This document shows, piece by piece, positions 2,801 through 4,088 of a stretch of DNA of 19,994 nt (positions within the stretch are counted from its first letter, which is position 1; each line of letters opens with the position of its first letter). The translations under genes were made by a program, and so were the position numbers. This DNA is from a virus (taxonomy: Duplodnaviria > Heunggongvirae > Uroviricota > Caudoviricetes): the IMG/VR virus record IMGVR_UViG_2695420538_000013. One strand, given 5' to 3'. Under the pieces are notes generated by a model. It was not told the origin of the DNA. It was given only the letters and a program-made list of their open reading frames with translations, and did not search any database.

Positions 2801-3079
2801 TCATCGAGTGTGAGGCTGTATGATTCCATGGTTACCTCTGCTTTTTGAACGCATGTCACGTAACTTCTTAATGTGTTCTGCCGTTTCGATCTCTTCTGCT
2901 ATCCGATCTGCATCAGCTTTATTCACAGGTTCAAAGTCATGATTAAAGCGGAACATGCTGGCGATACATGTTCTGCCTTTTCGGATGTAGTGAACTTTGT
3001 TGTGGGTAGAACGCAGGATTTTGCAGGGAGCGCCGTGGTGGTCGACGTACCAGGTGTTAGGAAAAATGATTCTGAACAT
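2801..3079 (-). CDS. Uncharacterized phage early-accessory protein
   Basis: 92-aa ORF with GAGGTG Shine-Dalgarno about 5 nt upstream of the ATG at 3079; lies between xis and the red genes. No family recognised with confidence. Confidence 0.6.
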   Translation of the reverse strand: MFRIIFPNTWYVDHHGAPCKILRSTHNKVHYIRKGRTCIASMFRFNHDFEPVNKADADRIAEEIETAEHIKKLRDMRSKSRGNHGIIQPHTR

Positions 3080-3126
3080 TTTTACACCTCAGTTGGACGA
3101 TGTTGAAATTTGCTGCTTTGAGGCCA

Positions 3127-3345
3127 TCACAGTCCCCATTGTTTGTTCTTAAGTTCGATCTCCTCCTGGCAACTTGCACAAGTCCGACAACCCTGAACGG
3201 CCAGGCGTCTTCGTTCATCTATCGGATCGCCACACTCACAACAATGAGTGGCAGATATAGCCTGGTGGTTCAGGCGGCGCATTTTTATTGCTGTGTTGCG
3301 CTGTAATTCTTCAATTTCTGATGCTGAATCAATGATGTCTGCCAT
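3127..3345 (-). CDS. TraR/DksA-family C4 zinc-finger protein (lambda Orf73-like RNA polymerase-binding regulator)
   Basis: 72 aa with acidic N-terminus and Cys-X2-Cys-X17-Cys-X2-Cys (CCECG...CASC), the signature of TraR/DksA-like phage proteins. Confidence 0.8.
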   Translation of the reverse strand: MADIIDSASEIEELQRNTAIKMRRLNHQAISATHCCECGDPIDERRRLAVQGCRTCASCQEEIELKNKQWGL

Positions 3346-3443
3346 CTTTCATTAATCCCTGAATTGTTGGTTAATACGCTTGAGGGTGAATGCGAATAAT
3401 AAAAAAGGAGCCTGTAGCTCCCTGATGATTTTGCTTTTCATGT

Positions 3444-3755
3444 TCATCGTTCCTTAAAGACGCCGTTTAACATGCCGATTGCCAGGCTTAAATGAGTCGG
3501 TGTGAATCCCATCAGCGTTACCGTTTCGCGGTGCTTCTTCAGTACGCTACGGCAAATGTCATCGACGTTTTTATCCGGAAACTGCTGTCTGGCTTTTTTG
3601 ATTTCAGAATTAGCCTGACGGGCAATGCTGCGAAGGGCGTTTTCCTGCTGAGGTGTCATTGAACAAGTCCCATGTCGGCAAGCATAAGCACACAGAATAT
3701 GAAGCCCGCTGCCAGAAAAATGCATTCCGTGGTTGTCATACCTGGTCTCTCTCAT
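3444..3755 (-). CDS. Uncharacterized small phage protein in the exo-xis interval; start codon uncertain
   Basis: Open frame of 103 codons, same orientation as the neighbouring genes. Alternative starts at 3725 (MHFSG) or 3659 (MTPQQ); the first ATG overlaps the upstream gene by 20 nt. Confidence 0.5.
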   Translation of the reverse strand: MRETRYDNHGMHFSGSGLHILCAYACRHGTCSMTPQQENALRSIARQANSEIKKARQQFPDKNVDDICRSVLKKHRETVTLMGFTPTHLSLAIGMLNGVFKER

Positions 3756-3927
3756 CTGCTTCTGCTTTCGCCACCATCATTTCCAGCTTTTGTGAAAGGG
3801 ATGCGGCTAACGTATGAAATTCTTCGTCTGTTTCTACTGGTATTGGCACAAACCTGACTCCAATTTGAGCGAGGCTATGTGCCATCTCGATACTCGTTCT
3901 TAACTCAACGGGAGATGCTTTGTGCAT
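3736..3927 (-). CDS. Small phage protein, positional equivalent of the lambda orf60a/orf63/orf61 cluster
   Basis: 63-aa [26 protein letters not shown]... in the gene-dense exo-distal region, with a short overlap to its neighbour as in lambda. Family assignment from memory only. Confidence 0.55.
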   Translation of the reverse strand: MHKASPVELRTSIEMAHSLAQIGVRFVPIPVETDEEFHTLAASLSQKLEMMVAKAEADERDQV

Positions 3928-4088
3928 ACAGCTCCCCGTTTATTATTTATCTCCTCAGCCAGCCGCTGTGCTTTCAGGGGATTTCGGATAACAGAAAGGC
4001 CGGGAAATACCCAGCCTCGCTTCGTAACGGAGTAGACGAAAGTGATCGTGCCTACGCGGATATTATCGTGAGGATGTTTCATCGCCAT
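3900..4088 (-). CDS. Small phage protein immediately distal to exo, positional equivalent of the lambda orf60a/orf63 cluster
   Basis: 62-aa [29 protein letters not shown]... whose start overlaps the exo stop by 10 nt. Confidence 0.55.

Follow-up and report, generated by a model that had tools for sequence, protein, structure and literature searches.

The interval between positions 2801 and 4088 of the 19,994-nt stretch of DNA analyzed here (the window) is explained, with a probability of roughly 0.9, as the exo-xis segment in the most distal part of the pL operon, a tightly packed series of small genes that carries an alternative DUF4222 cassette. The five small ORFs described in this interval are genes and not chance ORFs. 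Judged by sequence, four of them are near-identical to lambda genes that have already been studied and the fifth encodes a common DUF4222 protein, which makes the interval an ordinary stretch of E. coli lambdoid prophage. [quoted passage not shown]

The window is an E. coli lambdoid prophage; its DNA is 100% identical to many RefSeq chromosomes, and the same segment was found in 196 phage records. All five ORFs were recovered on the minus strand of the ORF listing at the coordinates first reported, in a block bounded by exo on one side and by a 76-aa HTH ORF adjoining the integrase on the other. Using tblastn, four of the five ORFs and an additional 31-aa ORF showed 91.5-100% identity to lambda, and the block adjoins exo-bet-gam as it does in lambda (gam is placed at 5547-5843 by PGAP). 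This orthology and gene order bore out the proposal of an accessory region between exo and xis of a lambdoid phage, and the assignment of the genes to the early leftward operon likewise held. The genes follow the order exo, orf60a, orf63, 27-aa ORF, orf61, 31-aa ORF, orf73, DUF4222 gene and xis-like gene, with ATGA stop/start overlaps at four junctions and a longer overlap at one. Four of the five ORFs gave Pfam matches above the gathering score which, together with the codon position of polymorphic sites among related loci (used here as a coding test), point to more than chance ORFs. On matching E. coli chromosomes, PGAP names the five products DUF1317, DUF1382, hypothetical protein, TraR/DksA family regulator and DUF4222. 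The count of five fell short, as two more ORFs of 31 and 27 aa lie within the interval, and the coordinates stood except that the 103-aa ORF is over-extended and orf60a likely starts at 4082. No Rfam match was found within 2400-4200 even at E<=1. At the far boundary, the 76-aa ORF is a putative excisionase, so named by its position only: Pfam HTH matches were weak and below cut-off, phrog_4745 ("DNA binding protein") was matched at 1.8e-06, a PDB sequence search gave no significant match, and its homologues in 10 phage records mostly adjoin or overlap an integrase gene.

Table 1 Features of the exo-xis segment and its boundaries, in window coordinates.
Feature	Position	Strand	Remarks
exo (lambda exonuclease)	4079..4759	-	97.8% identical to lambda Exo; PGAP: lambda exonuclease family protein; upstream boundary of the block
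orf60a orthologue (DUF1317), 60 aa	3900..4082	-	95% identical to lambda orf60a
Terminator-like hairpin t1, inside orf60a	3996..4018	-	Pattern scan
orf63 orthologue (DUF1382), 63 aa	3736..3927	-	95% identical to lambda orf63; 28-nt overlap with the 3' end of orf60a
Candidate 27-aa hydrophobic ORF, MTTTECIFLAAGFIFCVLMLADMGLVQ	3656..3739	-	Between orf63 and orf61; unannotated
orf61, full-length form, 71 aa	3444..3659	-	PGAP start; the earlier 103-aa ORF (3444-3755) is over-extended
31-aa ORF (29 aa if started at the conserved internal ATG, 3441)	3352..3447	-	100% identical to lambda
Terminator-like hairpin and T-run t2, inside the 31-aa ORF	3405..3423	-	Pattern scan; predicted promoter p1 overlaps
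orf73 orthologue, TraR-family regulator, 72 aa	3127..3345	-	Identity to lambda orf73: 91.5% across 71 residues
DUF4222 protein, 92 aa	2801..3079	-	Occupies the lambda ea22/ea8.5/orf55 site
76-aa HTH-like ORF, earlier called xis	2480..2710	-	Abuts the integrase

The ATGA overlaps and the tight packing suggest coupled translation, and the genes would accordingly be made as one coupled unit after prophage induction or infection. An IS3-family element, which contains an ALIL frameshift pseudoknot, interrupts the integrase here, and the prophage may therefore be defective; since no N-like antiterminator ORF was seen between kil and cI in the ORF list, read-through of the terminator-like t1 and t2 is not assured. 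Together with non-phage-looking cargo in the right part of the window, the split integrase and the missing N-like gene would suit a cluster that is a silent remnant of a defective prophage, neither expressed nor selected in its present host. We consider this unlikely, however, as none of the block genes is disrupted and all are 100% identical to their counterparts in many E. coli genomes without the IS, and repressor, cro-like, O and P genes have likewise stayed intact. Moreover, both halves of the integrase are otherwise uninterrupted, which makes the IS insertion look recent.

Four of the proteins were originally left without confident assignment; three of these turned out to be 95-100% identical to lambda/Stx orf60a, orf63 and orf61, with order and overlaps all shared, and the fourth belongs to Pfam DUF4222. 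The Pfam matches of orf60a (DUF1317, 133.6 bits, cut-off 22.3, 2.1e-39) and orf63 (DUF1382, 107.8 bits, cut-off 27, 3e-31) were strong, and orf63 additionally matched the NMR structure of lambda Orf63 (PDB 8DSB, E=2e-33); the PDB sequence search with orf60a gave no significant match. Polymorphisms among related loci showed a third-position excess for orf60a (P=0.011) and no such excess for orf63 in the sampled loci. For orf60a, the second ATG (4082) is most likely the start codon: it has GGGGAG 8 nt upstream, overlaps the exo stop as ATGA and gives the 60-aa form used by lambda and PGAP, compared to the earlier 62-aa version beginning at 4088. GGGGAG also precedes the orf63 ATG, at 4-5 nt. Deletion phenotypes have been published for orf60a, orf63 and orf61 of lambda and Stx phages, along with the NMR structure of orf63 (PMC6213356, PMC5575149, PMC10869804), and concern lysogenisation, induction timing and host survival (PMC6213356, PMC8614690). 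These genetic studies have shown that the three genes bias the lysis-lysogeny decision and prophage induction toward lysis.

The extent of orf61 required correction. Compared to lambda, the 103-aa ORF is matched in two frames, with residues 1-56 corresponding to orf61 and residues 53-103 to another frame. Lambda carries A7 where the window has A6, and the extra A truncates reference-lambda Orf61 to 61 aa. Phages phi24B and 933W and most wild lambdoid phages have full-length orf61, as in the window, and identity to lambda is 96-100%. Distant relatives of Orf61 are 68-89 aa long (mostly 69-75) and start a few residues before a conserved NALR motif, and 16 of 20 variant alleles in the frame of the N-terminal extension are non-synonymous, with one creating a stop; together, this indicates that orf61 spans only the 71 aa listed in Table 1. 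The only variant at Met33, the corresponding start, is GTG, itself a start codon, and both PGAP and the curated phage 434 record begin the protein there. Met33 is favored here over the starts in the literature, which give the 61- and 93-aa forms. Within orf61, polymorphisms among related loci showed a clear third-position excess (P=0.0002). The AlphaFold 2 model is a three-helix protein (pLDDT 89.6), and a homeodomain-like DNA-binding fold has been proposed for phi24B Orf61 (Donaldson 2021). No significant PDB match was found for Orf61 with either the single sequence or a 20-member profile; DARPin matches (E 0.2-1.8) were taken as chance, and the long multi-stretch matches from the HMMER representative search, mostly to WD40-repeat proteins, were spurious. 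Some Orf61 homologues are named ZapA in NCBI records; no Pfam ZapA match above the gathering score was obtained. All Orf61 relatives fall into phrog_303, a family of unknown function. The corrections to orf61 (a length of 71 aa and the truncation in lambda by an extra A) are of practical value for groups working on Stx phages, in which toxin release depends on when the prophage is induced.

Shortening orf61 leaves room for the 27-aa ORF, whose ATG overlaps the orf63 stop and whose TGA overlaps the orf61 ATG, each as ATGA. This ORF is intact in all related loci (77/77, and 157/157 in a larger overlapping set), encodes a hydrophobic peptide (GRAVY 1.62) and is present as an identical sequence in lambda at 30925-31008. 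In its frame, 11 of 20 variant alleles are synonymous compared to an expectation of 29% (P=0.014); neither of the remaining frames at 3656-3739 showed a synonymous excess, and both contain stop-creating variants. Overall, this is moderate evidence that the 27-aa ORF may be under purifying selection. It is annotated in none of the records inspected, and nothing further turned up in the literature under the peptide or the neighboring orf23xx names. The ORF is absent beside a 45%-identical Orf61 relative (L092), where a 222-aa ORF lies upstream in direct overlap with the orf61-like gene; the 27-aa ORF thus appears confined to the E. coli lambdoid block, a finding that is neutral with regard to whether it is real. 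If it is, lambda would have one gene more than annotated, and the "orf61" deletions and N-terminal models in the literature would have to be reinterpreted: with the old orf61 coordinates the deletions would also remove, and the models would also include, the 27-aa ORF.

Conversely, the 27-aa ORF could be accidental and Orf61 could truly be the 103-aa (or 93-aa) protein, extended at its N-terminus by a Cys/His-rich stretch. No stop interrupts the long frame in the window or in most relatives, upstream ATGs are annotated for lambda orf61 (start 31024) and for the 93-aa orf61 of Stx phages, phrog_303 spans residues 11-103 of the 103-aa ORF, and the 93-aa form is the largest Orf61 protein cluster. 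Nevertheless, we regard this as quite improbable: the extension is missing from all distant relatives, its frame has collected mainly non-synonymous variants and a stop while the alternative frame shows a synonymous excess and is never interrupted, and both the variation of Met33 to GTG alone and the two annotations that begin there argue for the shorter protein.

Downstream of the 71-aa orf61, the 31-aa ORF is probably lambda orf2313, a 31-aa ORF in the exo-xis block reported from lambda ribosome profiling (Liu et al. 2013, as cited in PMC8614690). Its start codon and the orf61 stop share an ATGA, and a 29-aa CDS is annotated for it in several phage records; the third-position excess of polymorphisms was a trend only (P=0.077). 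The terminator-like t1 sequence is listed for both lambda and phi24B, as a prediction only, and a sequence identical to the second hairpin is given there both under t2 and as the p1 -35/-10, again predictions only (Bloch et al. 2014, PMC4195576).

The proposal of a TraR/DksA-like zinc finger next in line was correct, the protein being the orthologue of lambda Orf73 (PMC9239242). It matched Pfam zf-dskA_traR (PF01258) with 35.2 bits (cut-off 24.9, 1.2e-08) and PDB TraR 5W1S with E=2.7e-05, and orf73 polymorphisms among related loci showed a third-position excess (P=0.0002). NCBIfam TIGR02419 (C4_traR_proteo) was a near miss, aligning over its full length (3-64 of 64) with 54.4 bits, below the cut-off of 59.7; PGAP nonetheless names the protein a TraR/DksA family regulator. 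When compared to the TraR/Orf73 hallmarks taken from PMC9239242 and PMC8614690, the N-terminus (M-A-D3-I-I-D6-S-A8) contains the acidic DxxDxA motif of the TraR family, followed by a C4 zinc finger (C35xxC38-17-C56xxC59) with extra C36 and C53, and E44-R-R-R47-L48 corresponds to the ExxR[K/L] motif, identical to ExxRL of lambda Orf73. The DxxDxA tip, the CxxC-17-CxxC finger, the two extra cysteines, ExxRL and the position after orf61 are all shared with lambda Orf73, and so is the single-helix architecture of ~72 aa, shared also with F-plasmid TraR (PDB 5W1S, 6N57), to which identity is about 30%. By these features, the window protein is a TraR-family protein orthologous to lambda Orf73 and a putative RNA polymerase-directed regulator. 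The lambda protein binds RNA polymerase, with its N-terminal helix (DxxDxA) inserted into the secondary channel. It inhibits rRNA and ribosomal-protein promoters independently of ppGpp, causes the host to grow more slowly and increases phage yield by about 3-4-fold; the mutated residues were D3 and D6 (PMC9239242), and ExxRL, located in the globular domain, makes contact with the rim helices and beta' Si3 (PMC8614690). By analogy, the N-terminal helix of window Orf73 would insert into the secondary channel of host RNA polymerase, and the protein would then inhibit rRNA and ribosomal-protein promoters, slow the host and lift phage yield. However, the last 12 residues, EEIELKNKQWGL, differ from EDLELISKQRGSK in lambda Orf73 and represent a second orf73 allele that travels with the DUF4222 cassette. 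In TraR, the C-terminal helix contacts the beta Si1 insertion of RNA polymerase. As these 12 residues differ from the lambda protein that was tested, the activity of window Orf73 could differ as well.

Host takeover or anti-defence had been suggested for the small proteins of the block. Takeover is shown for lambda Orf73, while nothing pointed to anti-restriction, anti-RecBCD or other anti-defence functions; PADLOC, which models defence systems and not anti-defence proteins, gave a meaningless weak match only, and NCBIfam gave no match beyond the TraR models. A match to known lambda proteins, named in the original prediction as an outcome that would speak against it, was found for four of the five ORFs, with molecular function established for Orf73 alone. 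That the four then-unassigned ORFs are novel host-takeover or anti-defence proteins (e.g., anti-restriction or anti-RecBCD) is highly improbable: the proteins are small, expected early in infection and encoded in an accessory region adjoining gam, exo and bet, molecular targets in the block are established for Orf73 alone (PMC8614690), and DUF4222 and phrog_303 have no assigned function, but three of them are conserved lambda/Stx genes whose deletion phenotypes do not concern defence, anti-RecBCD activity is already provided by neighboring gam, and the block is near-invariant across hundreds of phages, in contrast to fast-evolving anti-defence loci.

The fifth of the ORFs first described encodes the DUF4222 protein, which matched its Pfam model with 69.5 bits (cut-off 27, 1.8e-19) at profile positions 1-53, i.e., over the full 53-residue domain. 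The predicted structure consists of a Tudor-like barrel and, behind it, a long helix that carries a basic tail. No significant PDB sequence match was found, and a Foldseek search of BFVD with the model was uninformative, yielding uncharacterised small barrels and DUF1653. The barrel has been likened here to the C-terminal Tudor domain of the UvrD/PcrA helicases (PDB 7EGS, 7EGT, 5DMA), which is related to the RNA-polymerase-binding barrels of CarD, Mfd and NusG-KOW. One DUF4222 member has been studied, RgdR, which activates LEE1/T3SS and represses motility, and for which the RGD motif at residues 20-22 is important for activity (PMC3378721). RgdR (ECs1581 of EHEC O157:H7, 99 aa) and the 92-aa window protein both exceed the Pfam gathering score, are basic (pI about 10) with a barrel followed by a helical tail, and are encoded in early prophage regions. 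In contrast, they share only 24% identity by BLASTP, and the RGD motif has no counterpart, as the alignment starts at RgdR residue 24 and window residue 11, which is preceded by F-P-N-T-W. Their contexts differ as well, with RgdR located upstream of the primase in the P4-like cryptic prophage CP-933C and the window gene in a lambdoid pL operon. By these likenesses, the DUF4222 protein is most likely a small accessory transcription factor that acts via RNA polymerase or non-specific DNA contact. A more tentative and rather doubtful suggestion is that two things have been overlooked, a gene for a 27-aa membrane-type peptide and a role of DUF4222 proteins, including RgdR, as Tudor-like dockers on the RNA polymerase beta lobe. 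If DUF4222 docks there, the cassette beside Orf73 would provide a second, independent handle on host RNA polymerase. For DUF4222/RgdR, known so far by a virulence phenotype and not by its mode of action, the Tudor-like model offers a mechanism that can be tested.

The DUF4222 gene follows orf73 after a gap of 47 nt, and ea22, the fifth conserved gene of the exo-xis block as defined by Donaldson 2021, is not present in the window. The gene appears to be an alternative cargo cassette that replaces ea22/ea8.5/orf55. Downstream of the 72-aa orf73 allele, DUF4222 was the next gene in 27/27 loci, and ea22 was next to the 73-aa allele wherever the downstream ORF was recovered; overall, the DUF4222 cassette was found in about one third of the sampled loci.

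By sequence, the window can be assigned to an E. coli lambdoid prophage: without the IS, positions 1-6000 match many RefSeq E. coli chromosomes at 100% identity, and in NZ_AP022159 the matching prophage adjoins espL1. All five small ORFs of the original prediction were found in the ORF listing, on the minus strand and with the coordinates proposed. Their location, correctly called an accessory hot spot, is the already known lambda exo-xis region, and the four proteins described as lacking an assignment are orf60a, orf63 and orf61 of lambda and a DUF4222 protein. PHROGs assignments agreed with Pfam, and PGAP labels the genes in NZ_AP022159 as DUF4222, TraR/DksA family regulator, 71-aa hypothetical protein, DUF1382 and DUF1317. 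The segment at 2700-4100 is common to 196 phage records, mostly at 95-99% identity, including wild lambda-like isolates and Stx phages. An excess of polymorphisms at third codon positions in sampled loci (orf60a, P=0.011; orf61, P=0.0002; orf73, P=0.0002; none for orf63) indicates purifying selection on most genes of the block. An anti-defence function, also proposed, found no support using PADLOC, which models defence systems and not anti-defence proteins. The remaining value lies in a candidate 27-aa gene (present in lambda too), the 71-aa Orf61 start and a predicted Tudor-like model for DUF4222/RgdR.

Features of the window (identities are to lambda NC_001416 by tblastn; Pfam matches of block ORFs all exceed the gathering score)
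Feature	Position	Strand	Remarks
Integrase, P4-type, split	1-915 + 2241-2522	+	IS3-family insertion between
IS3-family element	916-2240		ORFs 918-1808 (296 aa) and 1805-2131 (108 aa), both (-)
ALIL frameshift pseudoknot	1734-1850	-	Rfam, 120 bits; spanned by the two IS ORFs
xis-like ORF	2480-2710	-	76 aa, HTH-like; convergent with integrase 3' end, 43-nt overlap
DUF4222 gene	2801-3079	-	Pfam DUF4222; no lambda counterpart
orf73	3127-3345	-	Pfam zf-dskA_traR; 91.5% identity; gene without annotation in lambda
31-aa ORF	3352-3447	-	100% identity
103-aa ORF (orf61 region)	3444-3755	-	two lambda frames
27-aa ORF MTTTECIFLAAGFIFCVLMLADMGLVQ	3656-3739	-	other frame, within the 84 nt upstream of orf61 Met33; hydrophobic, GRAVY 1.62
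orf63	3736-3927	-	Pfam DUF1382; 95% identity
orf60a	3900-4088	-	Pfam DUF1317; 95% identity
exo	4079-4759	-	upstream of the five ORFs
bet	4756-5541		upstream of the five ORFs
gam	5547-5843		upstream of the five ORFs
kil-like gene	5919-6209		
S24-type repressor	6721-7476		
YdaT_toxin-domain protein	7815-8354	+	179 aa
Large serine recombinase	11022-12548		508 aa; low-GC island
PEBP-family protein	13013-13564		low-GC island
AraC-family regulator	13574-14371		low-GC island
Lipocalin (Blc-like) gene	16610-17134	-	right end
DUF1722 / 2-thiouracil desulfurase-like gene	17327-18286	+	right end

Residues 1-56 of the 103-aa ORF correspond to lambda orf61 and residues 53-103 to a different lambda frame. 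DNA alignment located the shift to an A-run near 3600 (window ~3595-3600, minus strand; lambda ~30870), which is A6 in the window and A7 in reference lambda, where Orf61 is cut to 61 aa because of the additional A. The lambda protein was already noted by Donaldson to be shorter than the phi24B and 933W versions (PMC8614690). In a biased sample, A6 was present in 74 of 77 loci and A7 in reference lambda only, and the shortening of Orf61 may be confined to the lambda lineage. Many database Orf61 "homologues" are frameshift variants around the A6 run and a nearby A5 run, and the A-run looks like a frameshift hot spot. Distant relatives retrieved by HMMER from 1.84 billion representative proteins (32-65% identity; all phrog_303) have lengths of 68-89 aa (69-75 in most cases), and each begins a few residues ahead of a conserved NALR motif; their length and NALR-proximal start place the beginning of orf61 at Met33 of the 103-aa ORF (window 3659; product 71 aa), the start chosen also by PGAP and in the curated record for phage 434. 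One relative, 45% identical, lies in another gene context on IMG/VR contig 3300014922_000105 (846-2041), where it shares 14 nt with the end of a 222-aa ORF and a 117-aa ORF comes next; by eye, we take these two ORFs to be an MT-A70-type DNA methyltransferase candidate and a LexA-like HTH candidate, respectively. The 27-aa ORF is absent beside this relative.

The 27-aa ORF starts on the orf63 stop and ends on the orf61 ATG, each time as ATGA. Among 20 distinct variant alleles from 167 related loci, 11 were synonymous in the 27-aa frame (29% expected, P=0.014), 16 were non-synonymous in the frame of the orf61 extension, one of them a stop, and two stop-creating variants fell in the third frame. 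The ORF is intact in all loci examined, its amino-acid changes are mostly conservative, and lambda has an identical copy (NC_001416 30925-31008); the ORF was annotated in none of the inspected records and not found in a literature search. Overall, support for it as a candidate small-protein gene is moderate. Alternatively, it might serve as a translated "bridge", the act of translation mattering more than the product. The peptide would presumably reside at the membrane.

Upstream, orf60a most likely starts at its second ATG (4082), which shows ideal Shine-Dalgarno spacing and shares an ATGA with the stop codon of exo. Downstream, the 31-aa ORF likewise starts at an ATGA overlapping the orf61 stop. 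With these junctions at orf60a, the 27-aa ORF, orf61 and the 31-aa ORF, the block forms a run of overlapping genes that are probably coupled in translation. The 31-aa ORF is probably the "orf2313" of lambda ribosome profiling, as cited in PMC8614690; several phage records annotate a 29-aa CDS from its conserved internal ATG, and within it lie the terminator-like hairpin t2 and the predicted promoter p1 described by Bloch et al. (PMC4195576). Window orf63 matched PDB 8DSB (E=2e-33); the solved lambda Orf63 structure is a dimer with two helices and one strand (PMC10869804), and Orf60a has been modeled as a small beta-sheet DNA-binding domain (PMC8614690). The Wegrzyn and Donaldson laboratories regard orf60a, orf63 and orf61 as "pro-lytic" exo-xis genes, the deletion of which lets more hosts survive, raises lysogenisation and makes induction later, with larger effects in phi24B than in lambda (PMC6213356, PMC8614690). 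By analogy with these 95-100%-identical orthologues, the window genes would bias development towards lysis.

The TraR-like call for 3127-3345 was borne out by orthology to orf73. Lambda Orf73 binds RNA polymerase, complements a dksA-null strain, inhibits promoters of rRNA and ribosomal-protein genes both in vitro and in vivo, slows host growth and increases phage yield 3-4-fold, its activity requiring D3 and D6 (PMC9239242). The window protein retains the TraR motifs (D3xxD6xA8, C35xxC38-17-C56xxC59, E44xxR47L48) and two extra cysteines (C36, C53) of lambda Orf73, gives PDB matches to TraR chains (5W1S, E=2.7e-05) and scores just below the TIGR02419 cut-off (54.4; cut-off 59.7). As shown elsewhere for its 91.5%-identical orthologue, it would reprogramme host RNA polymerase. 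However, the last 12 residues differ from lambda. Downstream of the allele ending in EEIELKNKQWGL (72 aa), the DUF4222 gene came after 47 nt in 27/27 carrier loci; the allele ending in EDLELISKQRGSK (73 aa) preceded ea22, whose GTG start overlaps it, wherever a downstream ORF was recovered. These loci indicate two alternative cassettes downstream of orf73, and the co-segregation of alleles with cargo places the recombination boundary between conserved block and variable cargo inside the orf73 3' end (3127-3165, minus strand), in the C-terminal helix. Since this helix is the part of TraR that touches beta Si1, an insertion of RNA polymerase (PMC9239242), the window allele could differ quantitatively from that of lambda.

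The DUF4222 gene has a strong Shine-Dalgarno sequence (GAGGTG), and its protein has 166 homologues in Enterobacteriaceae prophages. A confident AlphaFold model (pLDDT 85) comprises a five-strand small barrel, a short helix, a C-terminal helix of ~30 residues and a basic disordered tail. The sole studied member, RgdR (ECs1581) of P4-like cryptic prophage CP-933C, is an activator of LEE1 and of type III secretion and a repressor of motility, with non-specific DNA binding (PMC3378721). The window protein lacks the RGD motif and is only 24% identical to RgdR; we infer a role via RNA polymerase or DNA.

In this prophage, expression of the block is putative; the integrase is IS-disrupted and no N-like antiterminator ORF was seen between the kil-like gene and the repressor (gap 6210-6720), where PGAP likewise leaves ~600 nt blank. 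One possibility is RNA-based, HK022-put-like antitermination for pL read-through of the terminator-like hairpins t1 and t2; Rfam returned nothing here. The integrase is intact in other genomes, and in one, NZ_OY754421, there appears to be an IS21-like element in the integrase region. The xis-like ORF, called an excisionase by position only, is without a family assignment, and its homologues in 10 phage records lie mostly beside or over an integrase gene.

Elsewhere in the window, the gene that follows the cro-like gene, in the place of cII, encodes a YdaT_toxin-domain protein (Pfam, 8.3e-30) and not a lambda-type CII. The lipocalin and DUF1722 genes seem to be either non-phage cargo or part of the flanking chromosome. 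Downstream of replication genes O and P lies a low-GC island (~10400-14400; GC 31-43%), which may resemble the ybcK-ybcL-ybcM cargo of prophage DLP12.
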